Origin: an uncultured Caldilineales bacterium
GTDB lineage: Bacteria > Chloroflexota > Anaerolineae > J102
Direction: 5' to 3'
DNA: 64,000 nucleotides
Assembly: GCA_964565065.1 (NCBI GenBank)
Contig: CAZMDD010000046.1
Coordinates: forward strand, 5,479-69,478
This document shows positions 8,207 through 63,947 of the stretch, one piece after another (within the stretch, counting starts at the first letter, position 1; each line of letters begins with the position of its first letter). Made by a program: the position numbers and the translations under genes. The notes below the pieces were generated by a model, which was given only the letters and a program-made list of their open reading frames with translations, was not told the DNA's origin and searched no databases.

Positions 8207-8212
8207 TTATCG

Positions 8213-18593: not shown

Positions 18594-20975
18594 ATGCGGC
18601 GACATCTCCCCAAGATAACTCTGCTTTTTATTGTGCTGCTGGCTGCAGGCCTGCGGCTCTACATGCTTGATGGGCAAAGTTTTTGGGCGGATGAGGGGAA
18701 TTCGGTGGTGTTGGCGCAAAAAAGTGTCAGCGACATCATTACAGCCGCTGCCGCCGACATTCATCCTCCAGCTTATTATCTTTTACTCAAACAGTGGGCC
18801 CGGGTCTTCGGCCTGAGCGAAACAGGGGCTCGCAGCTTATCAGTCCTTTTCGGCATTCTCACCGTGTGGGGGCTTTATTTGCTGGGCACTGCGCTCAAAG
18901 GGCAGCGCGTAGGCTTGCTGGCCGCGTTGCTGGCCGCCATCAATCCCTTCTTCATCCACTACAGCCAAGAGGCCCGCATGTATCAACTGCTGGCCCTGAC
19001 CGCGGTATTAAGTGCTTATGCGCTGGTTTTGTGGTGGCAGCGCGCCCTACAAGCGCAACGTTCTGCACGAGTGGCTGTTTCAGGCCTCTATCTGGTCATG
19101 GCGCTACTGGGGCTCTACACGCACTACGCGTTTCCCATCCATCTTATCGCCCTGAATGTCGCCTGGATGATTTGGCTGTGGGGGCAACGAGACAAAGGCC
19201 CGAAAAAACTGCTACGCGACTATCTGGCGCCGTGGGCTTTGCTGCAAGCGCTGGTGATGATACTTTTTTTGCCCTGGCTCCCCACCGCACTGCACCAAAT
19301 ACGCACCTGGCCACGCCCGCCAACACAGCTCAACGCGCTCATGGCGCTGGCCCACACCCTACAGCTTTTTCTCTGCGGGCCCACGCCTCGTGGTTTCAAC
19401 GTGGTCGTGCTAACAATCATCGGACTGTTAAGCCTGGGCCTGGCAGGGTGGGGGATTTGGCGACAGATGCACACCCGCGCCTTATCGCTGGCCCGCGCGT
19501 TGTTGCCACTGCTGTGGCTGCTGGCGCCGCTGTTGGCCATGTTGGTCGCGGGCGCATTCACACCGACCTTTTTCAAATTCTTGCTGCTGGCACTGCCCGC
19601 CTGGTTGCTGTTGCTGGCCCTGGGCATCGATGCCGTGGGCATTCCCGGCATTCGGCGTCCCAAGCGAGGGGATTTCGATATCGCAACTGTCCGGGCCTAC
19701 CTACTTACGCCCATCCTGCTGTTGATGATTGCGTTACCCGCGAGCGCATCCCTCAATCGCTACTATCACGATCCTGATGCGGCCCGAGATGACTATCGGG
19801 GACTGGCAGCCTGGCTCAAAGCCACGGCCCGCGCTGGCGATGCCATCATCCTCGATGCGCCTGGTCAGAACGACGCGTTCAGTCAATACGATCATGGCCC
19901 GGCGCCCGTTTATCTCCTGCCAGACGCGCGCCCGCCCGAGCCTACGCGCACGCGACGGCAACTGGACGCGATTTTGCAGAACAGCCAGCGCATTTTTGCC
20001 ATCTACTGGGCCACCGAGCAAGCTGATCCCGATAATATCATCGAAAATTACCTGATTGCCCACGCGTTCAAGGCCTGGGATGCGTGGGTGGGACATCTGC
20101 GCTTTGTGGCTTACAGCGCTGCCCCGCCCCCCGAGTTGCTACCCCGCCCGGAGCCTACACATTTTGGCGACACTGTGGTACTGCAAGCCACAGGTCTCAG
20201 CACCGAGCCGCTCCAGCCTGGCGATATTGCCCGGGTACAACTTTCGTGGATGGCCACTGCGCCGCTGGATGTTCGCTACAAAGTGACGCTGCAATTGCTA
20301 GACTTGGCGAATCAGGTGGTAGCACAGGTAGATAGCGAGCCAGCCGGTGGCACGCAACCCACCACCGGCTGGATTCCTGGCAATGCAGTGCTGGATGGCT
20401 ATGGTCTCGCCATTCCCTTGGCCACGCCTCCGGGCGATTACCCGCTCATTGTGGCCCTTTACGATGCCGAAACTGGACAGCGTCCGACCGTCAGCGGGCC
20501 CGGCTCGCAGGGAGATTATCTGGTACTGGGTAAAGTTCAAGTCATAGCACCGCAACAAGTGCCCCCTCGTTCCATTTTGCCCATCCGCTACGATGCTGAG
20601 GTGCGTCGCAACGAGGTGCTTTTCCTGGGCCATAACCGTTTCAAGCAAGGGTACAGCCATGCCCCCGAAACACCGCTGCAACCGGGCGACATCCTGCATT
20701 TGACCACATTCTGGCAGGCCGAAAGGACACCTGCTGAGGATTATTTGTTCGAGATACGGTTGGGCGATGCCCCGCTGGGACGCTATGCGCTGGCCGGGCC
20801 CGGCTATTTGCCCACCCAGTGGCTGCCCGGGTTGCCATGGCGCGGGGAACATGCCATTTTGCTGCCAGCAGATTTAGCTACTGGACATAAACAGCAGCTT
20901 AGCCTGCAAGTACTGACACCAGCAGGAGAAAGCGTGGGTAAACCTATTCTGCTCGGGCCCAAATTGCTCTATTAG
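18594..20975 (+). CDS. GT-C fold glycosyltransferase (GT39/ArnT-like) with a C-terminal periplasmic beta-rich domain
   Basis: The N-terminus is ArnT/PMT-like (SFWADEGNSV) with more than 10 TM helices. The C-terminal domain (about 20150-20900) contains a PTTGW motif shared with CDS 52964..54331. Confidence 0.65.
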   Translation: MRRHLPKITLLFIVLLAAGLRLYMLDGQSFWADEGNSVVLAQKSVSDIITAAAADIHPPAYYLLLKQWARVFGLSETGARSLSVLFGILTVWGLYLLGTALKGQRVGLLAALLAAINPFFIHYSQEARMYQLLALTAVLSAYALVLWWQRALQAQRSARVAVSGLYLVMALLGLYTHYAFPIHLIALNVAWMIWLWGQRDKGPKKLLRDYLAPWALLQALVMILFLPWLPTALHQIRTWPRPPTQLNALMALAHTLQLFLCGPTPRGFNVVVLTIIGLLSLGLAGWGIWRQMHTRALSLARALLPLLWLLAPLLAMLVAGAFTPTFFKFLLLALPAWLLLLALGIDAVGIPGIRRPKRGDFDIATVRAYLLTPILLLMIALPASASLNRYYHDPDAARDDYRGLAAWLKATARAGDAIILDAPGQNDAFSQYDHGPAPVYLLPDARPPEPTRTRRQLDAILQNSQRIFAIYWATEQADPDNIIENYLIAHAFKAWDAWVGHLRFVAYSAAPPPELLPRPEPTHFGDTVVLQATGLSTEPLQPGDIARVQLSWMATAPLDVRYKVTLQLLDLANQVVAQVDSEPAGGTQPTTGWIPGNAVLDGYGLAIPLATPPGDYPLIVALYDAETGQRPTVSGPGSQGDYLVLGKVQVIAPQQVPPRSILPIRYDAEVRRNEVLFLGHNRFKQGYSHAPETPLQPGDILHLTTFWQAERTPAEDYLFEIRLGDAPLGRYALAGPGYLPTQWLPGLPWRGEHAILLPADLATGHKQQLSLQVLTPAGESVGKPILLGPKLLY

Positions 20976-47004: not shown

Positions 47005-47114
47005 CAGTTGGGGATTGGGCGCATGATGCCAACGCACACGGGGGCATCATGCGCGGGCGTAGCGTGGCGCGCCTGACTCGTGCATTTTTCTTGCTGCTCT
47101 GGCTCTGTGCTACA

Positions 47115-48245: not shown

Positions 48246-49555
48246 AAAACATCACTGTCATTGGTGCGGGCTATGTGGGCCTGGTCACCGGCTCCAGCTT
48301 TGCAGACTTGGGCAACAATGTCACCCTGCTGGACATCATCGAGGAAAAAATTCAACGCCTGCGCCAGGGAGACATTCCCATCTACGAGCCGGGCCTTTCG
48401 GAGATGGTGGTGCGCAACGTGGCCAAAGGAAGGCTGCATTTTACCACCAGCTACGCTGAGGCGCTCAAAGATGCAGAGTTCGTGTTTGTGGCGGTGGGAA
48501 CCCCCTCGGGCGTGGATGGCGAGGCTGATTTGCGTTATGTGCGCATGGCCGCAGAAAGTATCGCCGAACACATGCACCAACCTCTCATCATCATCAACAA
48601 ATCGACTGTTCCTGTGGGCACGGGCGATTGGGTGGCCGATATCATCACCAAAAAACAACAGGAACCTATCCCCTTTTGGGTGGTTTCCAACCCCGAATTC
48701 CTGCGCGAAGGCTCTGCTATCAGCGATTTTATGAACCCTGACCGGGTGGTGCTGGGCTCGCAGCATGCCGAGGCTGCGCAAAAAGTGGCAGCTTTGCATC
48801 GCCCGCTGAATACCACGGTGCTTATCACCGACTTGCGCACCGCCGAGATGATCAAATACGCGTCCAATGCCTTTCTGGCGACCCGCATCAGCTTTATCAA
48901 CGAAATCGCTACCATCTGCGAAGAGTTGGGGGCAGATGTGAACATGGTGGCCAAAGGCATGGGCTACGACAAGCGCATCGGGCCCCACTTTCTCAACGCG
49001 GGCCTCGGTTTTGGCGGCTCCTGCTTCCCCAAGGATGTGCAGGCACTGGAGCACATGGCTCTGATTCATGGCGCACATCCGCAATTGCTGCGCGCGGTGC
49101 TGGATATCAATCAGCACATGCGGCGGCAGGTGGTAGTCAAGCTGCGCAATGCGCTGGATGGTCTGGGCGAACGCACAATCGGATTGTTGGGCCTGGCTTT
49201 CAAGCCCAATACCGATGATTTACGAGAAGCGCCTTCGCTGGACATCGCTCGTCAGATTTTACGTGAAGGTGGCCATGTGCAGGCTTATGATCCTGTGGCC
49301 ATGAACGAAGCCTGCAAACTGGTCGATGGGCTGCATCTGGTTGAAGACCCATACGAAGTCGCACAGGGGGCCGATGCTCTGGTGATGGTCACAGAATGGA
49401 ACGAATTCCGGCAATTGGACATGGTTCGTATTCGTGAGGCCATGCGCGGCTCGGTGCTGCTGGATGGCCGCAATGTGTGGAATCCTGATGAAATGCGAGA
49501 GCTTGGTTTTCGGTATTTTGGCGTCGGGCGTGGCGTCAAGAAGAATGGCTGGTAA
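48242..49555 (+). CDS. ugd: UDP-glucose 6-dehydrogenase
   Basis: It has an N-terminal Rossmann fold ([14 protein letters not shown]), the catalytic Cys context [10 protein letters not shown] and the UDPG/GDP-mannose dehydrogenase C-terminal domain. Confidence 0.85.
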
Positions 49556-49731: not shown

Positions 49732-51006
49732 ATGCTAACCGATAAGCTGCGCACGCATACTTTGGACAATGGCCTGACTCTGCTGTTGAAGGAGTCACAT
49801 GCCGCGCCTGTGACCAGTTTTTGGTTGTGGTATCGGGTCGGCAGTCGCAATGAACAGCCGGGATTGACCGGAATTTCGCATTGGGTGGAACATATGCTGT
49901 TCAAGGGTACCACTCGCCGGCCGCAAGGCAACTTCGATCGACTCATCCAGCGCGAAGGGGGGCATTTTAACGGCATGACTTGGATCGATTTGACCACCTT
50001 TTATGCCACGCTGCCCGCTGAGCGCATCGCTTTGGCGCTGGATATTGAAGCGGATCGCATGCAAAATGCGCTGTTCGATGTCGATGAGGTGGAAAGTGAA
50101 CGCACGGTGGTCATCTCGGAACGGGAGGGCAGCGAAAATCAGCCCGGCTTCTGGCTGCGAGAGCAGATTCAGGCGGCCAGTTTTGTGGCGCATCCTTACC
50201 GGCACATGGTTATCGGCTGGAAGGAGGATTTGCGGCGCATCACCCGGGATGATTTGTATGCGCACTATCGCACTTTTTACACGCCTAATAACGCTGTTGC
50301 GGTGGTGGTGGGCGATTTCGAGACCGAGGCCATGATTCAACAGGTAGAGACAGCTTTTGGCAACATCCCGCGCGGGCCTGAGCCTCCGGCCATGCGCGTG
50401 GTCGAGCCCCAGGCCCGCTCTCGACGTTCTGTCGAATTGCACGGGCCTGGCGGCGCGCACTATTATGCGCTCTGCTATCGTGTGCCCCCGGCCCGCGACC
50501 CCGATTTCTTTCCCCTGACCCTGCTGGGTGCGGTGCTGGATGGTGCGCGGGGCCTGCCACCCTTTGGCGGCGGCGGTCTGGGACGTTCCGCCCGGTTGTA
50601 TCGGGCCTTGGTCAACACCGGTCTGGCCATGGGGGTTAGCGGCGCGATGACTGCCTCTAAAGATGGCTATCTTTTCAGCATCAGCGCTACCGTCAGCAAA
50701 GAGACGAATCGTGAACAAGTCGAGCAGACCATCCAGCAGGAATTAGAGCGCCTGAAAACAGAGGCTGTGGGCCCGGAGGAATTGGCCCGGGCCATCAAAG
50801 GCACTCGCGCCCTGTTTGCCTATGGCAGCGAAAGTGTTACCAGTCAAGCTATGTTGTTGGGGTTGGCCAGCATCATTGCCGATATCGATTGGCTGGCCCA
50901 TTTTTTGGATAACATGGCCCGCGTCACCTCGGATGACATCCTGCGCGTCGCACGTCGTTACTTTGTGCCTGAAAACGAAGTTAGCGGCTGGTACATCAGC
51001 GATTGA
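49732..51006 (+). CDS. M16 family zinc peptidase (active subunit, HxxEH)
   Basis: It has the inverted zinc motif HWVEHMLFKGT. Confidence 0.8.
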   Translation: MLTDKLRTHTLDNGLTLLLKESHAAPVTSFWLWYRVGSRNEQPGLTGISHWVEHMLFKGTTRRPQGNFDRLIQREGGHFNGMTWIDLTTFYATLPAERIALALDIEADRMQNALFDVDEVESERTVVISEREGSENQPGFWLREQIQAASFVAHPYRHMVIGWKEDLRRITRDDLYAHYRTFYTPNNAVAVVVGDFETEAMIQQVETAFGNIPRGPEPPAMRVVEPQARSRRSVELHGPGGAHYYALCYRVPPARDPDFFPLTLLGAVLDGARGLPPFGGGGLGRSARLYRALVNTGLAMGVSGAMTASKDGYLFSISATVSKETNREQVEQTIQQELERLKTEAVGPEELARAIKGTRALFAYGSESVTSQAMLLGLASIIADIDWLAHFLDNMARVTSDDILRVARRYFVPENEVSGWYISD

Positions 51007-51025
51007 TGGGTGACTTCGGCGCTTG

Positions 51026-52348
51026 ATGCTTTTTTATCCGCCAACTCTGCATGAGACAAGTGTTATGATGAACCCTGCCATTCCCGGCCCGCACAACATC
51101 ATCATCGATGAGCTTAGCAATGGCTTGCGCGTCTGGGTTTATGAAAATTTCGAGTCCCAAACCATCTCGCTACAAGGTTATGTGCCGGGCGGAAGTATTA
51201 ACGAATCGCCGCAACAAACAGGCCTGGCAAATCTAACAGCACTCATGCTGCGACGGGGTGCAGGTGGGCGCAGCTACGATATGTTGAACGAAATCATCGA
51301 AGCGGTGGGCGCTTCATTTGATTTTGACACTGGACGACATACCCTGGGTTTTGATACTTATTCACTGGCAGAAGATTTTGATCTGCCCCTCTCGTTGCTG
51401 GCCCAAAGCCTGAAAACGCCCGATTTTCCTGAAACCGAGCTGGAAAAGAGCCGCAAGCAGCTTTTGGCCCGGCTGGAAGAACGGAAGCACAGCACCAACA
51501 TGCAAGCGCTGCTGGCCTTTCGGCAGCATCTGTACGCACCTGGTCATCCCTATCGCAGCTCCTTTCTGGGCGAAGAAGCCACGCTGCAACAGTTCACCCG
51601 TAAGCAACTCATCACCTTTTATCACAACAACATCACGCCTGCAGGAGGCATTGTGGTTGTGGTAGGTGCTTTGCCCGCCACCGAAATCATGGCCCGGCTG
51701 GAGCAAGCGCTGGGAGATTGGCGACATCCTCACGCCCGCCCCGATGACACCATCCCTCCCACCCCGCGCCTGACGGGCAAAATCGAGGTGAGCCTCCCCA
51801 TTCCCGGCAAAAGCCAAAGCACCCTTTTGCTGGGCTGGCCCAGCATTCCTGTCAATCATCCCGACTACTTCTCCCTGCTGCTTTGTAACAGCATTTTGGG
51901 ACAATTTGGCCTGGGCGGGCGCTTGGGGCAGCGGGTGCGCGAGACTCTGGGGCTGGCGTACAGCATCAACAGCAGCTTTACTGTGAATCGTGGTGCAGGA
52001 ACCATTCGAATCAGCGCTGGCGTGAATCCGGCCAACATCGGGCGCGCGCTAGAAGCTATTTTCCATGAACTCGGGCGCATTCGTAACCACCTGGTAACGC
52101 CGCAAGAGCTGGAAGATGTGCAACGTCATGCCAGCGGCTCATTGCCCTTGCGCCTGGAAACCAACAATGGCATTGGCAGCAGTTTGATCAACATGGCTTG
52201 GTACAACAGCGAACTCGATTATCTGCTGACCTATGCCGAGAAGATTTGGGCCGTGACGCGTGAGGATGTGCTGCGTGTAGCCCGGAAGTATTTTGATCTT
52301 GAAAATTATGTGCTTGTCACAGCAGGTCCGCCCCCGGAGGAAGCTTGA
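51026..52348 (+). CDS. M16 family peptidase-like partner subunit (non-catalytic, no HxxEH)
   Basis: It has the M16 fold but lacks the zinc motif. It is paired with the upstream active subunit. The start may instead be at 51065. Confidence 0.7.
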   Translation: MLFYPPTLHETSVMMNPAIPGPHNIIIDELSNGLRVWVYENFESQTISLQGYVPGGSINESPQQTGLANLTALMLRRGAGGRSYDMLNEIIEAVGASFDFDTGRHTLGFDTYSLAEDFDLPLSLLAQSLKTPDFPETELEKSRKQLLARLEERKHSTNMQALLAFRQHLYAPGHPYRSSFLGEEATLQQFTRKQLITFYHNNITPAGGIVVVVGALPATEIMARLEQALGDWRHPHARPDDTIPPTPRLTGKIEVSLPIPGKSQSTLLLGWPSIPVNHPDYFSLLLCNSILGQFGLGGRLGQRVRETLGLAYSINSSFTVNRGAGTIRISAGVNPANIGRALEAIFHELGRIRNHLVTPQELEDVQRHASGSLPLRLETNNGIGSSLINMAWYNSELDYLLTYAEKIWAVTREDVLRVARKYFDLENYVLVTAGPPPEEA

Positions 52349-52710
52349 TGCTAAGAACAGGTGTCGATATTATTGACATTGGCCGGGTGGAGCGTGCCCT
52401 GGCCCGACACGGCCATGCCTTTTTGCAGCGTGTTTACACGCCTGCTGAAATCGAGCTTTATAAACAGCGCACACAATCGTTAGCTGCGCGTTGGGCGGCC
52501 AAAGAGGCGGTGGCCAAAGCCCTGGGCACAGGCATCGGACCAGTGGGCTGGCAAGAGATTGAAGTGTTGGAAGATGCCTTGCGGGCGCCCACCTTACGCC
52601 TGAGCGGGCGCGCAGCCGCGCGGGCGCAAGCGTTGGGGCTAACACAGTGGGCCATCAGTCTTTCGCACACCCAAGAGCTGGCCACAGCCTTTGTCGTGGC
52701 ATCGGGATGA
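52345..52710 (+). CDS. acpS: Holo-[acyl-carrier-protein] synthase
   Basis: A 121-aa protein with the motifs GVDIIDIGR and WAAKEAVAKALG. Confidence 0.85.
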   Translation: MMLRTGVDIIDIGRVERALARHGHAFLQRVYTPAEIELYKQRTQSLAARWAAKEAVAKALGTGIGPVGWQEIEVLEDALRAPTLRLSGRAAARAQALGLTQWAISLSHTQELATAFVVASG

Positions 52711-52963
52711 TTTTCTGCCCGGAATCGCCAGATTTGGCAGGAAATTACTGGTCGTGATTATTTTGGGCTGATGGTCGCTGTATCCGCTATCCAGAAAGAA
52801 CTGCCAAGGCACAAAGACACGACGAAAAAGGGACTGAAAAAGAAGGGGCCTCACCGAGGGCGGAGCTGGTGGTTTTGCGTAAGACTCCTCACTCCCGTTC
52901 ACAGAACGTTTCATCCCTCTGCGCCCGTGGCCGAACTGCGCCCCGCGTGCTATAATCGCAATC

Positions 52964-54331
52964 ATGCAACGAACTCGCAAAGCTGGCGCGGTGTTTCTTT
53001 TGCTGATGCTGGCGATTTTTCCTGTTTGGGCTCCGCTCACTCGCCCGGGGCTGCCCGCGTGGCGCGCGGGCGTTCTGCCTGTGCTGGGCCTGCGCACCAA
53101 CGCGTTAGGCGCGCTTATGCCCGCGTCGCTGCCCGCAGCCGCGCTGTTGCCCGCCCGCGGCCTGCATGCGTTGGGGCTGAGCAATCTGGTGGCATTCAAG
53201 CTCAGCATCATCCTGGCGATGCTTATGCTGGCTGTAACGCTCTTTCTTTGGGCCCGGGTTGTGGCAGGTGTGCAAGCGGGCGTGCTGGCCGCATTGCTTA
53301 CCCTTTACGCGCCTCTTTTTCTCAGCGCCATCTATCAGCAAAGTGCATTGGCGGGCCTGTGGGTGATGTTGGGCGTGGCCATCAGTGGTTGGGGCATTAG
53401 TCTGAGCATGGTGTCTCGCTTGAAGGTTTTGCGGCAAACTGGCAAAATTCCATCGGAGCAGCCGCTGCATTGGCGGAAAACTTCGTTGTGGCTGCTGGCC
53501 ATGGGCGCTGTTTTGATTTTTGCCAATGCGTTGCCCGCGCAATGGCGGCAGCCGCCCAACGCTCTGCGCCCTCAGCTTTATCAGCTTGTGGAGCCTGGCT
53601 GGTTCTGGCAGACCAGCTCTCTGACCCTGCAAACCCCTGTGGCCTGGAGCCTGGGGCTGGGGCTTATCGCCATGTTGCTCATCACATTGTGGTTGGCTCA
53701 GGGCCCGGTGGGCAAATGGGTCTATCGGTTGACACTCATGGGTAGCTTGCTGCTAAGCATTGCTTTTTTTGTGCCCGAGCCCATCATCCCGCTGATGGCA
53801 GCATTGCCCATGCTTTCGGTGGCAGCAGCAGGGATTATGGCCCTGTTGCCGCAGCTCAAGCAACCTGCACTGTGGGCAGCGCTATTGCTGATGCCCCTGT
53901 TGGCCGCGGGGCCGGGCCTCTCGCCCCAATTCACCGACGTGCGTATCCCGTCAACGCCCGCAGCCATTTTTGGCGATAATCAGATCTTGCTGGTGGATGT
54001 TCAGGTGATTGGCGATTTGGCTCCAGGGCAGACCATCCAGGTGCAAACAACGTGGCAGGCGCTCAAAACGCCCGATTTTGATTACAATCTTTTCTTGCAT
54101 CTCACCGATGATGCCGGCAACCTCATCGCACAATTGGATACGCAACCCCGCGCGGGCGACACGCCCATGACCGGGTGGACGCGCGGGGCCATTATCCCCA
54201 ACAGTTACCAACTTGCCATTCCGGCAGATGCACCTGAAAAGCTGCATTTGCGCCTGGGGCTTTACAACTGGCAAACGCTCCAGCGCCTCCCTCTTACCTC
54301 CGGCCCCGATGCCTTGAGCATTGGCCATTAG
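52964..54331 (+). CDS. Polytopic membrane protein, putative GT-C-like glycosyltransferase, paralog 1
   Basis: It has more than 10 TM helices. Its C-terminal domain (GQTIQVQTTWQAL...PMTGW...YQLAIP) is homologous to the C-terminus of CDS 18594..20975. A TATAAT box lies 7 nt upstream of the ATG, suggesting a leaderless transcript. Confidence 0.5.
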   Translation: MQRTRKAGAVFLLLMLAIFPVWAPLTRPGLPAWRAGVLPVLGLRTNALGALMPASLPAAALLPARGLHALGLSNLVAFKLSIILAMLMLAVTLFLWARVVAGVQAGVLAALLTLYAPLFLSAIYQQSALAGLWVMLGVAISGWGISLSMVSRLKVLRQTGKIPSEQPLHWRKTSLWLLAMGAVLIFANALPAQWRQPPNALRPQLYQLVEPGWFWQTSSLTLQTPVAWSLGLGLIAMLLITLWLAQGPVGKWVYRLTLMGSLLLSIAFFVPEPIIPLMAALPMLSVAAAGIMALLPQLKQPALWAALLLMPLLAAGPGLSPQFTDVRIPSTPAAIFGDNQILLVDVQVIGDLAPGQTIQVQTTWQALKTPDFDYNLFLHLTDDAGNLIAQLDTQPRAGDTPMTGWTRGAIIPNSYQLAIPADAPEKLHLRLGLYNWQTLQRLPLTSGPDALSIGH

Positions 54332-54334
54332 GCA

Positions 54335-56152
54335 TTGACCCTTATGAAAGCCCTCCGCTCTGCCTCTTTTTGGACAGCCATCTTGCTGAGCTTCTTTGCC
54401 ATCGCCCCCTTGCTGCGGCCTGGCTACTTTTGGGCTGCGCACGATGCCCGGCACGATGTTTTCTTCATTTTGCAATACAACATCACCTGGGAACAGGGCA
54501 TCCTCTTTCCGCGCTGGTCGCCCGATTGGGCCTTTGGCTATGGCTATCCATTTTTCAACATCTATGCGCCCGGTGCGACCTTTTTGGGCACGCTCCTTTA
54601 TCGACTATTGCCCCTGACGCTGGAAAACGCGGTCAAAGCAACCTTTGGCGTTACCCTGCTTATCAGCGCAGCCAGCATGTGGCTTTTTGTGCGGGATTGG
54701 CTGGGCGAGCGGGCCGCATTGGTGGCCGCAGTGGCCTTTGTTTATGCGCCTTATCATCTGTTGGATGTGTATGTGCGGGCTGCCATGGCCGAAAGTTTGG
54801 CCCTGGCCCTGCTACCCCTGGCCCTGTGGGCGCTGCGACGCACTGTCAGGGAGCCCAGTGCGCGCCACATGGTACTCACCGCCCTGACCTACGCGGCCAT
54901 TCATCTTAGTTCCAATTTGGTGGCCCTACTGTTTACGCCGGTACTGGGGCTTTATCTGCTGCTGCTGGTCTGCCAACGGGCGCGAGCAGAGCAAGATTCT
55001 TCTTTGTTTTCCCTTGCCTCTTTATCTCTTTGCGTAAGATATATCTTTGCACCCGCCGCGGGCCTGCTTCTGGGCGTCATGCTGGCCGCGTTCTTCATCC
55101 TACCTGCACTGGCTGAAAAGAATTTTGTCAATCTGGGGCAATGGTATAGCGGCTACTATGATTTTCACGAGCATTTTGTTTATTTTGCCCAACTTTTCGA
55201 TCCTCGTTGGGGGTTCGGCATTAGCACGCCCGGGCCTCATGATCCCCTCAGCTATCAACTGGGCCTGGCACTCTTCTTACTGGCGGCATTGGCAGCCTGG
55301 GCCTTTTTGCGTCGTCCGGGCCAAGAGCGGGCCGAAATCGGCTTCTGGCTGCTCATCTTGCTGGGAAGCGTGTGGTTGACTACCGCTGCTTCGACCCTGG
55401 CCTGGGATTTTGTACCCATGGTAGCCATGGCGCAATTTCCGTGGCGTTATCTGACGCTGGCTGTGCTTGCGTTGGCGCTGCTGGCCCCGGTTATCCTTAC
55501 CATTGGCAGCTACAAGATGAGCGAATCGACGCATGTGCGCCATTCATGGCTTATTCCCTTGCTGCTTTCGGGTCTGATTATCTTTGCCAGCAGCCATTAT
55601 CTGCGCATTCAGGCCATCACGCCTCCGCCCGGCGGTGCTACCCTGGCCGGCCTGATGGAATTCGAACGCAGCTCCGATGAAATGACAGGCATGACCGCTA
55701 CGGCGCAGGATGTGGCACATTGGTCACCTCTGGCCGATTTGCACATGGCGGGGCAACCTGTCACGACTCAGGTGGATTATGGCCTGGTGCAGGCCAATGA
55801 GCATCTGGCTGTGGATTCGCTGGAACACAGTGTCATGGCCGAAACTGTGTGGGTGCAAGCTGATGCGCCCGGACAAAGCGTTCCCTTTTTACGGCAATGG
55901 TATCCTGGTTGGACGGCCACCCTGCTGGACCCTGACACACGCGCGGTCCTCCAGCGCGTTGCCCTCACCCCCAACAACGTTCGCGATCCCTACGGACTCA
56001 TCACCGTGCCTGTGCCCCAGGGACGCTACTTGTTGCGCCTGAGCTTCGAGGATACCCCCATCCGCAAAATTGGCAACACCCTCTCAATCCTCACGCTGTT
56101 TATTTTGGCTGCTCTGCTGCTGCCCTGGCGTAAAAATGTGAGGATGCACTGA
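54335..56152 (+). CDS. Polytopic membrane protein, putative GT-C-like glycosyltransferase, paralog 2
   Basis: Its N-terminus (LLRPGYFWAAHDARHDVFF...RWSPDWAFGYGYPFFNIYAP) is shared with paralog 3. It has more than 10 TM helices. Confidence 0.5.
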   Translation: MTLMKALRSASFWTAILLSFFAIAPLLRPGYFWAAHDARHDVFFILQYNITWEQGILFPRWSPDWAFGYGYPFFNIYAPGATFLGTLLYRLLPLTLENAVKATFGVTLLISAASMWLFVRDWLGERAALVAAVAFVYAPYHLLDVYVRAAMAESLALALLPLALWALRRTVREPSARHMVLTALTYAAIHLSSNLVALLFTPVLGLYLLLLVCQRARAEQDSSLFSLASLSLCVRYIFAPAAGLLLGVMLAAFFILPALAEKNFVNLGQWYSGYYDFHEHFVYFAQLFDPRWGFGISTPGPHDPLSYQLGLALFLLAALAAWAFLRRPGQERAEIGFWLLILLGSVWLTTAASTLAWDFVPMVAMAQFPWRYLTLAVLALALLAPVILTIGSYKMSESTHVRHSWLIPLLLSGLIIFASSHYLRIQAITPPPGGATLAGLMEFERSSDEMTGMTATAQDVAHWSPLADLHMAGQPVTTQVDYGLVQANEHLAVDSLEHSVMAETVWVQADAPGQSVPFLRQWYPGWTATLLDPDTRAVLQRVALTPNNVRDPYGLITVPVPQGRYLLRLSFEDTPIRKIGNTLSILTLFILAALLLPWRKNVRMH

Positions 56153-56181
56153 ATCATCGATTCCCAATCTTTTCTTCTCCC

Positions 56182-57909
56182 ATGCCCCGGTCCCGCTCCC
56201 CTCTCATCCTGCTCATTCTTTTGAGCCTTCTGGTTTTGGCCCCATTACTGGCCTCCGGCTACTTTTTGCGCGCCCACGATGCCCGGCATAGCCTCATCTG
56301 GCTGGTGGAGTATGATCAGGGCATTCGTAGCGGCTTTTTGTGGCCTCGTTGGGCTCCAGATCATTCGCAGGGCTTTGGGTATCCGTTGTTTACTTTTTAT
56401 GCGCCCTTTGCCTTTATCATCGCCGAAGGCTTTCATTTGCTGGGAGCCAGTATTGTGGGGGCAGTCAAGCTAACCTGGGCGCTGGCGACCCTTTTAGCAG
56501 GTGTAAGTATGTACCATCTGGCCCGACGCTTGTGGGGTATTGGGCCTGCGTTCATTGCCGGTTTGCTTTACATGGTCGCGCCTTATCATCTGGTCAATAG
56601 CTATGTGCGCGGTTCTCTGGCCGAATTTGTGGCCCTGGCTCTTTATCCGTGGGTTATCGACAGTTTTTTGTTGCTGTTGCGACGCAAGACCATGCGTAGC
56701 ATCGTGCCTGCTGCACTTAGTCTGGGCTTGCTGATTATGACTCACAGCGTTACCTTGATGTTGTTGCCGCCGCTGCTGGCCTTGTTCATTCTTTATTGGC
56801 TGCTGCTGGATTGGCGGCAGCGTGGGCGGTGGCCATGGCGGACGACATACTATGCTTTAGCTGCGGGGCTGCTGGGCGGTTTGCTGGCTGCCATCTTTTT
56901 GCTGCCCGTGCTGGCCGAAACTCGATACATCGTTGTTGATCAGTGGCTTCCCGCTGAAAGCTACAATTATCCTCAGCAATTTCTTTACCTTTTTCAACTG
57001 TTTGATTTTGCTTGGGATTACGGTTTTGCTTTGCCCGGGCCCGATGATGGCATGAATCTTTCTATTGGCTTGTGGCTGGTTATTCTGGGACTGGCTGCGC
57101 TGCCGTTGGGCATCAAGTCATTATCCCGCCACCGCGCCCTTTTCTGGTCCTTTTTCATCCTGGCGTTACTTTCACTCTTTGCCACCCAGGCCCCCAGCAA
57201 AATTTTCTGGGATGCGATTCCCATGATCAAATTGGTGCAGTTCCCTTTCCGATTCCTGGCCCCCAGCACGCTCTTTCTTTCGTTGGTGGCTGCCGGAATT
57301 GTGACTGCGCTGTTGCCCGAATCGCAAGAAGCTTTTCATCCCTTGCTGTTGGTGCTGGCTCTGGCAATTTTGTTGGGCTCCTGGCACTATGCTCAGCCGC
57401 AGCACACGCCCGCGCCTCCATCTGCGCAAACGCCTGTCGCCGATATTCAGTTCGAGCTGGATTATCCCGATATGCGGGGCAGCACTGCGTTTGCGGGTGA
57501 CAAACCGGTGACATCGCCCAAGGTGGAGGCTTATCTGGCGGGCCAGCCGCTGCCCCTGGCCGAGATTATCCAGGGAACTGGCAGTGTGGCGAGTATTGAT
57601 CATGGAGCGGGTGTTGAGCAGGTGGCTGTGCTGGCTGATGTGCCCATCACGCTGCAATTTTACACCTATTGGTATCCTGGCTGGCGGGCGTGGGTCGATG
57701 ATCAGGAGGTGGCGGCACGGGCCTCGGGCCCGGATGCCCTCATCACGCTGGATGTGCCCGCGGGCGAGCATCATGTGCGCATCCGCTTTACCAACACGCC
57801 TTTGCGCACCCTGGCCGCCATCATCAGCCTGCTAACAGCGCTCATTTTGATCATCATCCACTTTTGGGATACAATCCGCCTCTCCCTGCCCTTCAACAGC
57901 AATCATTAG
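56182..57909 (+). CDS. Polytopic membrane protein, putative GT-C-like glycosyltransferase, paralog 3
   Basis: Its N-terminus is LLASGYFLRAHDARHSL...RWAPDHSQGFGYPLFTFYAP, homologous to paralog 2. Confidence 0.5.
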   Translation: MPRSRSPLILLILLSLLVLAPLLASGYFLRAHDARHSLIWLVEYDQGIRSGFLWPRWAPDHSQGFGYPLFTFYAPFAFIIAEGFHLLGASIVGAVKLTWALATLLAGVSMYHLARRLWGIGPAFIAGLLYMVAPYHLVNSYVRGSLAEFVALALYPWVIDSFLLLLRRKTMRSIVPAALSLGLLIMTHSVTLMLLPPLLALFILYWLLLDWRQRGRWPWRTTYYALAAGLLGGLLAAIFLLPVLAETRYIVVDQWLPAESYNYPQQFLYLFQLFDFAWDYGFALPGPDDGMNLSIGLWLVILGLAALPLGIKSLSRHRALFWSFFILALLSLFATQAPSKIFWDAIPMIKLVQFPFRFLAPSTLFLSLVAAGIVTALLPESQEAFHPLLLVLALAILLGSWHYAQPQHTPAPPSAQTPVADIQFELDYPDMRGSTAFAGDKPVTSPKVEAYLAGQPLPLAEIIQGTGSVASIDHGAGVEQVAVLADVPITLQFYTYWYPGWRAWVDDQEVAARASGPDALITLDVPAGEHHVRIRFTNTPLRTLAAIISLLTALILIIIHFWDTIRLSLPFNSNH

Positions 57910-57917
57910 CCATTCCC

Positions 57918-58937
57918 ATGTCTATCCGTCAATGTCCCAATTGCGGGGCACAAGTCAGTCACAAAGCAGATGAATGCTTCATGTGCGGCTATCAATTTCA
58001 TCAGCCGCAACGTGTGCGCGTGCGCGTGCCCTGGGCCGACATCATTCTGGTGCTGTTCATTGCGGCGTTGGTGGCCATCTGGTGGCGCTGGGATGATGAG
58101 CGGCAGGTTTTGGCCCAAACTCCCTCTGCTACCCCCACGTACACGGTCACGCCCACGCAAACGCCTACCATCACGCCCACGCCTACGATTACGCCCACGC
58201 CCACCATCACACCGACACCCACGCCTGTTGTGCATACTGTGCGGCCAGGTGATACGTATCTGGGCATTGCTAATCTTTATGGCATCAAGCTGGATGATTT
58301 GCTGGCCGCCAACAATTTGAAAGTTGATGACATCATTCAGCCGGGGCAAGTCTTGCGTGTTCCGGCAGCCAGCGGCGATGTGGCCTATCCTACGCCCGAG
58401 CCTCTGAGCGGGCGTTTCAACTACGCTGTAGAATTGGGGGACACCGTAGAGGCCATTGCCATTCGTTTGCAAGTCGATCCGACAGTCATTCTTGAAAACA
58501 ACGATATTTCCGATCCAGATCATCTGCAACCGGGCCAGGTGCTCATCATTCCCATGGGATCTGAAATGGCTGATGTCGAGCCAACTATTGTGCCGACACC
58601 GCAGGGGCGACCACAGCCGCCGGTGCTCATCGGGCCCGCCAATGGCAGTGTTCACGCGGGGCCGACCGGGCCATTGCTGCGTTGGGTCTCGGCCCATTTG
58701 TTACCGGATGATATTTGTTATCAGATTAACCTGCGTTACGCAGACCCGCACTTGCCCGAAATTTCTCCCATTTGCACCAAAGCGGGCAGCTTGCGTTTGG
58801 ATAATGCCTTGCGCCCGCCCGCGGATGCCGCGTCCGCGGAAATTCGTTGGTGGCTTCGCCTGGTGCGTTTGACCCGGGATGGTGATGTTTATCCTGTCAG
58901 TCTACCCAGCGCTGTGCGACGTTTTGAGTGGCATTAA
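57918..58937 (+). CDS. Zinc-ribbon / TM / PT-linker / double LysM domain protein
   Basis: It has an N-terminal CPNCG...CFMCG zinc ribbon and a TM helix. The linker is TPTITPTPTITPTP. Two LysM motifs are present (HTVRPGDTYLGIANLYGIKLDDLLAANNL and YAVELGDTVEAIAIRLQVDPTVILENN). Confidence 0.7.
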   Translation: MSIRQCPNCGAQVSHKADECFMCGYQFHQPQRVRVRVPWADIILVLFIAALVAIWWRWDDERQVLAQTPSATPTYTVTPTQTPTITPTPTITPTPTITPTPTPVVHTVRPGDTYLGIANLYGIKLDDLLAANNLKVDDIIQPGQVLRVPAASGDVAYPTPEPLSGRFNYAVELGDTVEAIAIRLQVDPTVILENNDISDPDHLQPGQVLIIPMGSEMADVEPTIVPTPQGRPQPPVLIGPANGSVHAGPTGPLLRWVSAHLLPDDICYQINLRYADPHLPEISPICTKAGSLRLDNALRPPADAASAEIRWWLRLVRLTRDGDVYPVSLPSAVRRFEWH

Positions 58938-59242
58938 ACTTTGGCAGTGGGTATTTTGTCTGAGGGGAATTGTTCGCAGTTGGGGGGGCGGGCGTAGACG
59001 CCGGGAAGCATTTACATAAACGTTCAGTGGGCAGCTATGAAGCTTTTTCGCACAGCGAGTCATTCTGGTTCTTTCGGATTTCAGGGGGTCTGGCGCTGTC
59101 AAGCCGCCGGATCACGGATCCGGCTCAAGAGCGGGGGCTCCCAGGGCGGATTCGCAATCCGCCCGGCCTATCACTCCTGAAACCCAGTTGAGCCAAAAAG
59201 CACTCAAATGACCGGGATTGGGCAAGAGCAGCAAAATTCAAT

Positions 59243-59296
59243 AGATTTCTCCATAACTTCTCCACAATTTCTCCCGAATTCCTCCAAGATTCTCCT
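59243..59296 (+). repeat. Five direct repeats of (A)TTTCTCC / TTCCTCC at a regular 11-bp spacing
   Basis: TTCTCC occurs at 59247, 59258, 59269, 59279 (as TTCCTCC) and 59290. The array lies 83 bp upstream of the DUF2202 gene start. Confidence 0.5.
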
Positions 59297-59378
59297 TTAT
59301 ACTAAAGGCAGCGTTAAGGATGACCTTAGCGATTCGCAATCCAACCATTTACGCCTACGATTTACGGAGGATCCTATA

Positions 59379-60290
59379 ATGAAACCTTTTAAAACTTTTA
59401 TCGCCACACTTTCAGTTGGGGCATTGACACTCATCCTGGCAGCCTGCGGAACGCCCGTTTCGGCTGACGATGTTACATCGATGGTCAATTCGGCGCCCGT
59501 TGCACAACCTACGGTTAAGGCCAATGTCAGCAATACGCCGGCAGCGTTGCCATCGGGCAGTGGTTATGGCCAGCAGGGCAATGGCCGCGGGGCCGCACAG
59601 CAGGCTCAGGGCGGGCAGTTGCCCTTGGGCACCAATCTGCCGGCAGCAGGAACGGTCGATGATCAGGAAATCGCCGACTTGCTGCAAATGCGTGAGGAAG
59701 AAAAACTGGCCCGGGATGTTTATATCACTCTGGGCGAACAGTGGAATCTTGCCGTTCATACCAACATTAGCCGCTCTGAGCAGCAACACATGGATGCCAT
59801 CGGTTTTTTGCTGGAACGCTACGGCATTGCCGATCCGGTGGGTGATAACCCGGTGGGGGTTTTTACCAATTCCGATTTGCAAGCGCTTTACGACCAGCTC
59901 GTAGCGCAAGGTCGTCAATCCATGGCAGAATCGCTGAAAGTGGGCGCGACGATCGAGGATGTTGATATTTATGACTTGCAGAAGGCGCTCGCGAACACCG
60001 ACAACGCAGATATTCAAGAGGTTTATCGCAGCTTGATGGCTGGTTCTGAGAATCACATGCGAGCCTTTGCGGGGACGCTGATTCAACAGACCGGCGAAAC
60101 CTATACACCACAATACATTGAGCAATCTACTTTTGATGCCATCATGGCAGCCAGCAATAGTCACGGTCATGGTGGCTATGGCCAGGGCCGCCAAGGTCAG
60201 GGGGGGCAGGGCCAGGGTGGCTATGGTCAGGGCAAAGGTGGACGTGGCGGTCAGCGCGGTCAATCCTATAATCTTGCTCCCAACAGCTAA
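59379..60290 (+). CDS. DUF2202 (ferritin-like superfamily) lipoprotein with a Gly/Gln-rich C-terminal tail
   Basis: It has a lipobox (LILAACG), a DUF2202 signature (LLQMREEEKLARDVYITL...SEQQHMDA) and a tail GHGGYGQGRQGQGGQGQGGYGQGKGGRGG. Its RBS is GGAGGA. Confidence 0.6.
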   Translation: MKPFKTFIATLSVGALTLILAACGTPVSADDVTSMVNSAPVAQPTVKANVSNTPAALPSGSGYGQQGNGRGAAQQAQGGQLPLGTNLPAAGTVDDQEIADLLQMREEEKLARDVYITLGEQWNLAVHTNISRSEQQHMDAIGFLLERYGIADPVGDNPVGVFTNSDLQALYDQLVAQGRQSMAESLKVGATIEDVDIYDLQKALANTDNADIQEVYRSLMAGSENHMRAFAGTLIQQTGETYTPQYIEQSTFDAIMAASNSHGHGGYGQGRQGQGGQGQGGYGQGKGGRGGQRGQSYNLAPNS

Positions 60291-60428: not shown

Positions 60429-60571
60429 GGTTACTACTAAGGTCGCCCGGCTAGAAACCACGAAGACACGAAGCCACAAAGGCACGAAGAAAAGAAAAAG
60501 CTTTGAAATGCTTGATGTTCTTGGTGTCTTTGCGCCTTTGTGGTGATTGAAGTCGGGGACGTTAGTCGTTA
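60429..60571 (-). mobile_element. MITE copy 8 (inverted orientation) with a perfect 8-bp target-site duplication (TTGTATTG)
   Basis: GTTACTACTAAGG...GTTAGTCGTTAC. TTGTATTG sits at 60421-60428 and 60572-60579. Confidence 0.8.
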
Positions 60572-60596
60572 CTTGTATTGCACAAAGGAGCAAGCC

Positions 60597-61937
60597 ATGA
60601 CTCGAATGGATTCAAAACCTCAATCAAGAACATCGCCGACAGTTTCTCGACAGGTTGAGCGCAATCGCATGAAGGCGGTGATGAATAATAGCATCTTGCA
60701 TTTGCATCCCACCCGCGTGCCCGCCTCGGCCCTTGCTTTCACCTACACCTGGGGCTTGGGAGGTCTTTCGGCTCTGCTGGTGATGATTCTTGGCAGCACC
60801 GGCATCTTGCTCATGTTTCGCTACGATGCCAGCATCGAACGGGCCTATACCAGTATTCAGTATTTAGAAACCCAGGTGATGTTCGGTTCGATGCTGCGTT
60901 CGGCGCATCATTGGTCTGGCAATCTTCTTGTTATCACTGTCTTTTTGCACATGCTGCGGGTGTTTCTGACAGGTAGCTATAAAAAGGGACGCACCACTAA
61001 TTGGATTGTCGGTATTTTGTTGCTGCTTATGGTCATTGGCTTTAATTTTACAGGTTATCTGCTGCCATGGGATCAACTGGCTTATTGGGCTGTTACGGTG
61101 GCCACCAGTTTGCTGGGATATGTTCCTGTGCTGGGGCGTATGATCAGTAATTTTTTGCTGGGCGGGCCAGAGGTTGGGCAGGCGACGTTGCGTAATTTTT
61201 ATGCCATTCACGTTTCGGTGTTGCCTGCAGTGCTGTTGTTTTTGATGGCGTATCATTTTTGGCGTATTCGCAAGGATGGTGATATTTCGCAGCCCGAGCG
61301 TGTTGATAAAACGCCCAAACTTACAACAATCCCTTATCTGGTGCAGATGGAGCTGGCCGCGGCGGTCATTCTTGTTGCGGTGGTTTGTTTTTGGGCGATG
61401 GCTGTGCCCGCACCTTTGGAGGCGCTTGCTAATCCGGCACATCCGCCCAACCCGGCCAAGGCTGCCTGGTATTTTTTGGGATTGCAGGAGCTTTTGTTGC
61501 ATATGCACCCGCTGGCTGCGCTTATGCTGCCTACTTTTATTCTGTTGGCTCTGGCGTCGATTCCTTTTTGGGATAACCAGTCGGACAGTGATATTGGCTT
61601 GTATTTTCGCTCGGAGGTGGGGAAGCAGGTTGCAGGCCTTGCGGTGTTGCTAGGGCTTTTGTTGCCTCCGATTCTGGTCTTGTTGGATGAGTTTTGGATT
61701 GATTTGCCCGCCTGGTTGCCCATGTTGTCTACCATCATCTCTAACGGGATTATTCCGGTACTGTTTACGCTGGGAGGACTGGCGCTCATTTATGTGGTTT
61801 TTCGTCGTCGGTATAAGGCCAATCGCAGCGAGGCAACGTTGGGATTGTTTCTCTTTTTGTTCATCAGCCTTGTTGTCCTTACGTTCACCGGGATATATTT
61901 TCGTGGCCCCAATATGGCTTTGATTTGGCCATTTTAA
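60597..61937 (+). CDS. Cytochrome b of a cytochrome bc-type complex (fused b6 / subunit IV-like)
   Basis: It has heme-ligand His in HHWSGNLLVITVFLHMLRVF, the PWDQ quinol-site motif (GYLLPWDQLAYWA) and 8 or more TM helices. The start is the ATG at 60597 after AAAGGAG. Confidence 0.85.
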   Translation: MTRMDSKPQSRTSPTVSRQVERNRMKAVMNNSILHLHPTRVPASALAFTYTWGLGGLSALLVMILGSTGILLMFRYDASIERAYTSIQYLETQVMFGSMLRSAHHWSGNLLVITVFLHMLRVFLTGSYKKGRTTNWIVGILLLLMVIGFNFTGYLLPWDQLAYWAVTVATSLLGYVPVLGRMISNFLLGGPEVGQATLRNFYAIHVSVLPAVLLFLMAYHFWRIRKDGDISQPERVDKTPKLTTIPYLVQMELAAAVILVAVVCFWAMAVPAPLEALANPAHPPNPAKAAWYFLGLQELLLHMHPLAALMLPTFILLALASIPFWDNQSDSDIGLYFRSEVGKQVAGLAVLLGLLLPPILVLLDEFWIDLPAWLPMLSTIISNGIIPVLFTLGGLALIYVVFRRRYKANRSEATLGLFLFLFISLVVLTFTGIYFRGPNMALIWPF

Positions 61938-61957
61938 TCATTGCCTGGAGTTTTATC

Positions 61958-62465
61958 AATGTCGCAATTTATGATTCAGGATTCTTCGAATAGCGCTAAA
62001 ATGAGTCGTCGTAATTTTCTCAAACTAGGAGCTGCTGCTCTAGGAGCATTGGCTGTGCTCGAGATAACTGCGGCCGGGGTGGTTTTTCTGGAGCCACGCA
62101 GTCTGGAGGGTGAATTCGGTGGTGTGGTCACTGCGGGCCCGACCGAAAGTTTTCCTCCTGCCAGCATTACCGAGTTTCCGGCAGGGCGGTTCTTTCTTAT
62201 CCGGGCTGAAGATGGCGGTTTTTTGGCGGTTTACCGGCGTTGTACCCATCTGGGATGTTCGGTGAGCTGGGAGCCGAGTCAGAATCAGTTTGTATGTCCT
62301 TGTCACGGTTCTCACTTTGATGATGTTGGCAATGTGGTCAATCCTCCAGCTCCGCGGGCGCTGGATACGTTCAATATCACTATCGCTGAAGGTGTGGTTC
62401 GTGTCGACACAGCCAAACCCCGCACGCGAGATGAGTTTGAAGCTTCTCAATTAGTTTACGCATAA
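61958..62465 (+). CDS. Rieske [2Fe-2S] iron-sulfur protein with a twin-arginine signal
   Basis: It has a Tat motif (SRRNFLKLGAAALGA) and Rieske boxes CTHLGC and CPCHGS. Confidence 0.8.
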
Positions 62466-62474
62466 GGAATCATC

Positions 62475-63947
62475 ATGGACAAAAAGTATCTTTTAATGAT
62501 TTTTGTCGGCTTGCTGTTTTTGGTGGTGGCATTGCCTGTCTATGCTTTGCATGAGCCTGAGCGCATGGCCGCGGCCCAGCAGTCATTGCGCGAGACCTTT
62601 GTTGCAGATGGTGCGGTCATGTATGTTGATAATTGTTCGCTGTGTCATGGTGTGGATGGTTCGGGCATTGGGGCTTATCCTGCGTTGGATGCCGAGGCGA
62701 TTCGCAATGCTGAGTATGATTTTTTGTATAAAACGATTGCCCGCGGGCGCTATAATACAGCCATGGCCGCTTGGCACGAGGAGGATAACGGGCCATTCAA
62801 CAGCTATCAGGTGCAAGAGATGGTGGCCTTTTTGCGCTATGTGGATTGGGGGCAGGTGGCAGAGTTGGCTGCTCAGCAGGGGGTGATTCCACCAGCCATG
62901 CCTGTGCCCGATGTGCCCGAGGCTTTATTGGCGCAAGTGGCCGCGCTCGGGCCCGATGGCAATGTCTGGGCCAGCGGCATGGTTACCTATGCCAAAAATT
63001 GCACCACTTGTCATGGTGTCAATGGCGAGGGCACTGATTTGGCGCCACCCTTGGCAACTGATGCCATTCGGGCAACCCAGGCCGGGGAACTGCGCCGCGT
63101 TATCAGCGAGGGTGTGCCTGGAACGATGATGCCTTCCTGGAATGCCAAGTTGGATGAAAGTGCCATCGATGAGCTGGTCTTGTTCATCAGTAATTGGGAT
63201 AAAATTGCCGAGGCAGGCATCGAATTGACGCATCCTGCCCCCATTCATATCGATCCCCGTAATCCCCAAGAGATGTGGGCGTTGGGTAAGAGTCTTTATG
63301 CCAATGCCTGCGCTGCCTGTCATGGCACCGAAGGCGAAGGTGGAAGCGGTCCTGCTCTGAATAGCTTGCAAATTCTCAGCCGCCATGATGATGCCACCCT
63401 GGCCCAAACAATCATCTACGGCCCGCGCCGTCCTTCCAGCATCATGCCCCCCTTTGGCGACCGTTTGACTTCGGTAGAAGTAGATGCACTGGTGCGGTTT
63501 GTGCGTTCGTGGGAAGCCACAGCTACCTGGGTCGAGAATCCGCGCGGCACTGAACAAGGTGGTGGCGGGCCTCCCTGGCTGCGAGCCACGCCCGACCCCA
63601 AAAATCCCATTCAGCCTGGTGAAGGTGGTGGCCCGCCCGCGGGTATGGGCCCCGAAGCAGATTGGCAACGTCCCACAGGTCCCACCCTGCACTTCAGCGG
63701 ACAGGTTATCGATGTGATGGAAAATCAACTTGTTTTCAGTGACCGGCAGGGCACAAAGCACAAAGCCATGCTGGGCCCATCCTGGTGGTGGGCCGAAAAC
63801 GGCATCGAGTTGCAAGTAGGTGATGCCATCGAGCTGGAAGGATTTGAGGGCGTTGACCAGATGGAAGTCGTCTGGATCAGAAATTTGCGCACCAACGCCC
63901 GCATCGACCTGCGCACGCCCAGCGGCATGCCCGTGTGGACAGGTTAG
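62475..63947 (+). CDS. Membrane-anchored c-type cytochrome with three class-I heme-binding domains plus a C-terminal non-heme domain
   Basis: It has three CxxCH sites (CSLCHG, CTTCHG, CAACHG), each followed by a Met-containing segment, and an N-terminal TM anchor. Confidence 0.8.
   Translation: MDKKYLLMIFVGLLFLVVALPVYALHEPERMAAAQQSLRETFVADGAVMYVDNCSLCHGVDGSGIGAYPALDAEAIRNAEYDFLYKTIARGRYNTAMAAWHEEDNGPFNSYQVQEMVAFLRYVDWGQVAELAAQQGVIPPAMPVPDVPEALLAQVAALGPDGNVWASGMVTYAKNCTTCHGVNGEGTDLAPPLATDAIRATQAGELRRVISEGVPGTMMPSWNAKLDESAIDELVLFISNWDKIAEAGIELTHPAPIHIDPRNPQEMWALGKSLYANACAACHGTEGEGGSGPALNSLQILSRHDDATLAQTIIYGPRRPSSIMPPFGDRLTSVEVDALVRFVRSWEATATWVENPRGTEQGGGGPPWLRATPDPKNPIQPGEGGGPPAGMGPEADWQRPTGPTLHFSGQVIDVMENQLVFSDRQGTKHKAMLGPSWWWAENGIELQVGDAIELEGFEGVDQMEVVWIRNLRTNARIDLRTPSGMPVWTG

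Follow-up and report, generated by a model that had tools for sequence, protein, structure and literature searches.

Two glycosyltransferase-like paralogs, their divergent relative and a LysM protein in a predicted conserved operon of Chloroflexota

What do three consecutive genes for large membrane proteins do in an uncultured Caldilineales bacterium (Chloroflexota), and which of their neighbors, if any, do they work with? The genes lie on the plus strand of a 64,000-nucleotide (nt) stretch of contig CAZMDD010000046.1 (assembly GCA_964565065.1, positions 5,479 to 69,478), referred to below as the window, and encode proteins of 455, 605 and 575 amino acids (aa): gene 1 (52964..54331), gene 2 (54335..56152) and gene 3 (56182..57909). 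A preliminary description, made from the sequence alone, regarded them as three paralogs with a common N-terminal signature and a fold of the glycosyltransferase C (GT-C) type, and suggested that, together with acpS, ugd, a flippase-like gene and a LysM gene located nearby, they could form a dedicated pathway of envelope glycosylation or lipid modification using UDP-glucuronate. The three open reading frames (ORFs) were confirmed, and all four of the neighbors are indeed present in the window. Our analysis supports the GT-C fold and points to a conserved operon, in which gene 1 is a far more divergent protein than genes 2 and 3, and the LysM gene is the only conserved neighbor.

Genes 2 and 3 encode paralogs that match along their full length (33% identity across 555 aa, E=1e-71) and share the signature PGYFxxAHDARH … PRW(S/A)PD … GYGYP … YAP. 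Both exceed the gathering threshold (26.4 bits) of the Pfam family PF10131 (PTPS_related), scoring 44.9 and 62.4 bits, respectively; this family has been assigned to the Pfam GT-C clan CL0111 (PMC7801869). The PF09586 (YfhO) model gave 25.2 bits with gene 3, below its threshold of 28.5, only model positions 787-834 being aligned, and had no match to gene 2 in the Pfam scan. None of the three proteins matched an NCBIfam model. The polytopic architecture includes the conserved N-terminal module of GT-C(A) enzymes, comprising transmembrane (TM) helices 1-7 and two juxtamembrane (JM) helices. An Asp at the tip of JM helix 1 (JM1) is essential for catalysis in all GT-C(A) enzymes (PMC12041299), and both proteins retain it, as judged from sequence and secondary structure: Asp37 within the intact HDARH motif of gene 2 (nt 54440-54454) and Asp33 within that of gene 3 (nt 56275-56289). 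In the predicted model of gene 3, Asp33 immediately precedes the helix formed by residues 34-49. It is invariant in all 31 sequences of the gene 2/3 family alignment (A2), as are D60, E148, E246, D289, E425, H32, H36, K96, H136, R143 and R357 (gene 3 numbering), and every retrieved ortholog of either gene keeps (H/N)DA at this position. Gene 3 further has an extracytoplasmic beta-sandwich (residues 460-536) followed by a C-terminal TM anchor (residues 540-568), and its closest structural neighbors are the protein-glycosylating enzymes Pmt4, STT3B and AglB. Judging by these features, genes 2 and 3 look like working sugar-transferring enzymes. They are ordinary members of an uncharacterized GT-C family; a full-text literature search for PF10131 or PTPS_related returned no functional study.

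Gene 1 has neither part of the signature: its N-terminus is VWAPLTRPGLPAWRAG, the sequence APLTRPGLPAWRAG occupies the place of PGYFxxAHDARH, and the PRWxPD…GYGYP loop is absent. No significant BLASTP similarity to genes 2 and 3 was detected, and no Pfam model matched the protein even at E<=1, so that by the threshold test gene 1 is not a member of PF10131. The relationship becomes visible at the level of profiles. When the alignment of the gene 1 family (A1, 33 sequences) was compared with A2 by hhalign, the entire membrane domain was spanned (probability 99.5%, E=3e-22, 356 columns), and plain searches of sequences with hidden Markov models (HMMs) agreed (E=5e-14 and 8e-14). The predicted structure of gene 1 likewise contains a well-packed GT-C scaffold (predicted local distance difference test score, pLDDT, 91). 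The GT-C fold holds for all three proteins, whereas the common signature is restricted to genes 2 and 3; by sequence comparison, the three genes are two close paralogs and one divergent, motif-less relative.

In the hhalign alignment, Asp33 of gene 3 is paired with Gly36 of gene 1, whose JM1 helix comprises residues 38-48 in the predicted model, and the JM1-tip Asp of GT-C(A) enzymes is missing. Loop 1, the first outer loop, contains no acidic residue conserved among the 33 members of the family, and the segment corresponding to PRWxPD…GYGYP is deleted in the clade of the window. Glu210 is the sole invariant acid in the membrane part of the family. Mean identity within the family is 56% in the C-terminal sandwich versus 41% in the membrane domain. 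With Gly36 at the catalytic position, no conserved acid in loop 1 and a sandwich that is better conserved than the membrane part, gene 1 looks catalytically degenerate, that is, like a GT-C scaffold without the canonical catalytic apparatus, probably inactive as a transferase and with a strongly constrained outer domain. A frameshift or truncation of gene 1 was considered as the reason for the absent N-terminal motif and rejected: the start is set by a conserved promoter and ATG, and the N-terminus is common to all orthologs. More distant gene 1-like proteins are of two types. Those with PGYWQALEGF have a Glu near JM1 and are followed by gene 2 only (loci L029, L037, L043, L046 and L047), and those with PGYLQVH(S/Q)GF have no acid near JM1 and in most cases precede gene 2, gene 3 and the LysM gene (L030-L036, L040, L049 and L054). 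The association of motif type with operon content suggests that the acidic residue may have been lost stepwise as the operon grew. A literature search for precedents of pseudo-GT-C proteins produced nothing useful.

The C-terminal part of gene 1 is a predicted extracytoplasmic beta-sandwich (residues 333-453; 53960..54322) for which the preliminary description had noted a counterpart in a distant gene of the window, a GT39/PMT_2-like GT-C gene of 793 aa (18594..20975, plus strand). The latter matches PF13231 (PMT_2) with 42.6 bits over residues 57-229 (threshold 26.1). Residues 336-448 of gene 1 and 524-636 of the GT39-like protein share 39% identity (BLASTP, E=2e-16), and an HMM of the domain connects the two proteins (E=1e-20) and reveals that the GT39-like protein contains another, more diverged copy. 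With a profile built from 21 domain copies (A3), these two tandem copies (residues 523-642, nt 20160-20519, and residues 680-780, nt 20631-20933) were recovered at E=3e-41 and E=1.6e-22. The same profile was searched against 1.84 billion representative proteins (clusters at 50% identity) and matched 29,244 cluster representatives at E<=1e-3, including 5,635 at E<=1e-30. A number of matches of this order shows that the similarity is not compositional, and the earlier claim of homology is upheld. Most of the best-scoring matches are 900-1100 aa long with three to four tandem C-terminal copies, and some are only 400-700 aa long. Seven of 10 sampled matches have N-terminal PMT_2, TMEM260-like or PTPS_related domains, and in none of these 10 is there a Pfam model covering the sandwich repeats. 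The sandwich is widespread among GT-C proteins but has no curated model, and is hence a candidate new domain family. It resembles the Wzt C-terminal domain (PF14524, Wzt_C) distantly, below the thresholds of that family. Sequence searches of the PDB returned nothing meaningful, whether the query was the domain profile, the GT39-like gene, gene 1 or gene 3.

Genes 2 and 3 also end in a sandwich; that it is the same module as this domain was considered and ruled out (hhalign probability 0.9%), and the gene 1-type domain is absent from both proteins. As to the GT39-like gene itself, an ADEG (Asp-Glu) motif follows TM1 in its product, and the gene stands alone, flanked on one side by an aminotransferase gene and on the other by an unannotated ORF of 436 aa (21511-22821), which runs on the opposite strand and the translation of which looks GTPase-like by eye.

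The gene arrangement suggests that the three genes are expressed together with the LysM gene (gene 4, 57918..58937, plus strand). The intergenic gaps between genes 1, 2, 3 and 4 are 3, 29 and approximately 8 nt. The 253-nt spacer upstream of gene 1 ends with an extended -10 box, TGCTATAAT (52948..52956), separated by 7 nt from the gene 1 ATG. In 13 other genomes (L001, L002, L004-L010, L013, L015, L016 and L023, compared with 52948-52966 of the window), the gene 1 orthologs are preceded by the pattern TG(C/T)TATAAT-N7-ATG with identical spacing, although protein identity is only 40-47%. Outside the -10 box, the spacers in these genomes are not conserved. Conservation of the box and of its distance to the start codon implies that gene 1 has a promoter of its own marking the operon start, and that the mRNA is likely to be leaderless, its 5' end lying at the gene 1 start codon. 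A generic promoter and terminator scan performed no better than on shuffled sequence and, for want of a -35 match, did not pick up the real -10 box. No Rfam family was found in the region 52300-59400 at E<=0.1. The longest ORF of the LysM gene would begin at TTG 57864 inside gene 3, with a 46-nt overlap; the more likely start is the ATG at 57918, which lies 8 nt past the gene 3 stop codon and directly in front of the CPNC motif of the zinc ribbon. Gene calls of the LysM orthologs in L001 and L005 begin within the zinc ribbon and look truncated.

Comparison of genomes shows the same grouping. In total 70 related loci were collected, 64 from species-representative genomes and six from protein look-ups; five of the 70 are duplicate contigs, and 64 of the 70 come from different genomes. 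All loci from the species-representative genomes bear Chloroflexota labels (Anaerolineae, Caldilineales/Caldilineae, Litorilinea, Roseilinea, Thermoflexales, one Ktedonobacterales and two Chloroflexia). Forty-nine non-redundant loci contain a gene 1-like gene, and the counts obtained from them are lower bounds, one locus having been missed due to an ORF-parsing artefact. A gene 2 ortholog directly follows gene 1 in at least 36 of the 44 loci with 600 bp or more downstream, so that the co-occurrence extends over dozens of Chloroflexota genomes. Genes 2 and 3 both follow gene 1 in at least 20 of 35 loci with sufficient flank, and genes 2, 3 and the LysM gene in at least 17 of 32. Homologs of ugd, the flippase-like gene, acpS and the M16 peptidase genes were found in none of the 70 loci (flanks of up to 8-10 kb per side, less at contig ends), nor were any polymer-synthesis genes linked to these loci. 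The LysM gene, rather than ugd, the flippase-like gene or acpS, is the only conserved neighbor. Short gaps, conserved promoter and synteny all argue for genes 1, 2, 3 and the LysM gene being one functional unit, a predicted self-contained operon.

The LysM gene may indicate what this unit acts on. Its product (LysM family match with E=3.4e-26, plus zinc-ribbon matches) has a zinc ribbon and a single TM helix; a Thr/Pro-rich linker (TPTQTPTITPTPTITPTPTITPTPT) then leads to two LysM domains and to a C-terminal domain that is conserved. Such linkers are typical for the family: the T+S+P fraction in a 30-aa window is at least 0.60 in 16 of 18 distinct orthologs and at least 0.70 in 12. Thr/Pro-rich low-complexity linkers recur in further proteins of the window that are predicted to be exported or membrane-anchored. 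Besides the LysM protein (57918-58937), these are two trypsin-like proteases (6149-8206 and 8213-10237), the product of an unannotated ORF of 230 aa (10206-10898), CdaR/YbbR (25100-26437, minus strand), a PknB-like kinase with PD40 repeats (40112-42307) and RodZ (45062-46057, minus strand). In streptococci, PknB, RodZ and CdaR are among the proteins reported to be O-glycosylated in extracytoplasmic Ser/Thr-rich regions by YfhO-family GT-C enzymes (PgtC2, or PgfM1 of the Pgf cluster), and the Pgf cluster encodes two GT-C paralogs beside their substrates (bioRxiv 10.1101/2024.05.05.592596).

We propose an operon of two catalytic GT-C proteins and an Asp-less partner, which would glycosylate protein linkers or a wall polymer; taken as a whole, this model has in our judgment an even chance of being correct. 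Genes 2 and 3 would be anciently duplicated, non-redundant GT-C(A) glycosyltransferases of PF10131 that, as all GT-C enzymes do, obtain their sugar from a polyprenyl-phosphate carrier as the presumed donor, with the invariant Asp of HDARH at the JM1 tip as the putative catalytic residue. Gene 1 would be a third, far more divergent paralog in which Gly replaces this Asp and the first outer loop has degenerated; most likely, it could serve as a non-catalytic acceptor- or glycan-recognition partner in a putative complex with gene 2, comparable to PIG-U. The acceptor would be the Thr/Pro-rich linker that wall proteins anchored in the membrane, first of all the LysM protein, expose outside the cytoplasm, in parallel to the linker glycosylation carried out by the streptococcal YfhO-type enzymes PgtC2 and PgfM. 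The full version, a heteromeric GT-C machine in which a pseudo-glycosyltransferase reads the glycan or acceptor via its sandwich and two PF10131 enzymes O-glycosylate Thr/Pro linkers of peptidoglycan-associated membrane proteins, is a tentative construction that we consider rather unlikely to prove right in every part.

Several observations weigh against the proposed operon model. The loss of the JM1 Asp in gene 1 is read at the sequence level, and the protein keeps an invariant Glu210 and Lys79, a relocated catalytic residue being possible. The full-text search found no demonstrated activity for any member of PF10131. Neither a GtrB/DPM1-like polyprenyl-phosphate sugar synthase of family GT2 nor a small GtrA/GtcA flippase, the components expected of a three-component system of the Gtr/Csb type, was found in the operon or elsewhere in the window, to which the search was confined; both could be encoded in another part of the genome. 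Thr/Pro-rich linkers are common in this organism, and the evidence from the LysM protein is correspondingly weak. Finally, protein O-glycosylation could just as naturally be the task of the GT39-like gene at 18594.

The known system closest to this proposal is the YfhO family (B. subtilis YfhO, streptococcal PgtC2, S. mutans PgfM1/PgfM2). A GT-C domain, an extracytoplasmic domain and a C-terminal TM anchor are common to both, the site of action is outside the membrane in both cases, the C-terminus of gene 3 aligns, weakly, to the last 48 positions of the YfhO model, and the Pgf cluster likewise combines two GT-C paralogs with Ser/Thr-rich substrates. However, genes 2 and 3 fall under PF10131 and not PF09586, for which the score is sub-threshold; no GtrB/PgfS-type GT2 or GtcA flippase is linked here; nothing in the YfhO systems corresponds to the additional Asp-less paralog and its Wzt_C-like domain; and the lineage is Chloroflexota. 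In the Pmt1-Pmt2 heterodimer (GT39), both subunits retain the DE motif and have a luminal MIR domain instead of beta-sandwiches, identity being only 10-14%. PIG-U/GAB1 of the glycosylphosphatidylinositol (GPI) transamidase has a GT-C fold without transferase activity. It is eukaryotic, is part of a transamidase complex and has no beta-sandwich; its proposed analogy with gene 1 concerns the role only. In O-antigen ABC transporters, the Wzt C-terminal domain lies in the cytoplasm, joined to an ABC ATPase, whereas the sandwich described here lies outside the cytoplasm, joined to GT-C proteins and often present in tandem copies. Mycobacterial EmbA/B/C and AftD are GT-C proteins with C-terminal carbohydrate-binding modules; these modules are unrelated in sequence to the sandwich, and the catalytic Asp is kept in all Emb and AftD proteins.

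The alternative that survives best concerns the acceptor, which could be a cell-wall glycopolymer, such as a peptidoglycan-linked polysaccharide of filamentous Chloroflexota, and not a protein. Genes 2 and 3 would then decorate or extend the polymer outside the membrane, as YfhO does with teichoic acids or Emb/Aft with arabinan, the sandwich of gene 1 would recognize the end of the polymer, and anchoring of the machine to peptidoglycan would fall to the LysM protein. The top structural neighbors of gene 3, all of which glycosylate proteins, and the lack of linked polymer-synthesis genes in the related loci speak against this possibility, which we hold to be less likely than not. O-glycosylation of protein linkers is slightly favored because of the Thr/Pro-rich linkers, the streptococcal precedent and the YfhO-like layout of gene 3; this evidence is circumstantial, and a wall-bound polysaccharide would be nearly as likely an acceptor.

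A somewhat weaker alternative is that all three proteins are active, gene 1 using a relocated residue, for instance Glu210 in the YQLxEPxW loop, and that they build a glycan sequentially in the manner of mycobacterial Aft/Emb. The well-packed scaffold of gene 1, the invariance of Glu210, and Lys79 and the YAP motif, which gene 1 has in common with genes 2 and 3, are consistent with activity, as is the Glu or Asp near JM1 in the more distant PGYWQALEGF-type proteins; moreover, the position of the catalytic Asp varies among arabinosyltransferases (PMC12041299). On the other hand, Glu210 is aligned by hhalign to a variable stretch of genes 2 and 3 before the invariant Trp278, where no residue is conserved, gene 1 lacks counterparts of Arg143 and Glu148, which do not vary in genes 2 and 3, and its loop 1 is devoid of conserved acids and partly deleted. 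On balance we find it unlikely that gene 1 is a third active enzyme.

The UDP-glucuronate pathway of the preliminary description, in which the three genes would act in an arn-like manner with ugd (48242-49555), the flippase-like LPG_synthase_TM protein gene (47001-48245) and acpS (52345-52710), is very improbable and largely refuted by synteny: all three genes do lie upstream of gene 1 on the same strand, but none is linked to the cluster in the 70 related loci, two M16 peptidase genes separate ugd from it, gene 1 has its own conserved promoter, and no ArnA/B/C/D-like genes were found in the window. The proximity of ugd, acpS and the flippase-like gene is probably a local coincidence.

Other features of the window include two pairs of tandem paralogous proteases, M16 peptidases (424 and 441 aa; 49732-52348) and trypsin-like serine proteases (685 and 674 aa; 6149-10237). 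On the minus strand, a DAC-domain diadenylate cyclase gene adjoins a YbbR-domain gene (25100-27339), which is the usual cdaA-cdaR pair for c-di-AMP synthesis. The region 60540-63947 encodes, by reading of the translations, a cytochrome b-like membrane protein (465 aa), a Rieske-type protein (174 aa, CTHLGC…CPCHGS) and a multi-haem c-type cytochrome (490 aa) with several CxxCH motifs.

As far as we could find, three things are new: a conserved operon of three diverged GT-C paralogs and a LysM protein, a first paralog that lacks the JM1 Asp and bears a Wzt-like sandwich, and the spread of this sandwich over several GT-C families without a curated model. For the large GT-C family PF10131 no function has been assigned by experiment, and the construction and decoration of the Chloroflexota envelope are poorly understood. 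The conserved operon offers a concrete, testable unit for assigning the function of PF10131, and definition of the sandwich as an acceptor- or glycan-recognition module would improve the annotation of many genomes. The heteromeric machine, if true, would provide the first function for both PF10131 and the sandwich and the first protein-glycosylation system of Chloroflexota. Current ideas would not be overturned; rather, known GT-C biology would be extended to a new lineage and a new architecture.

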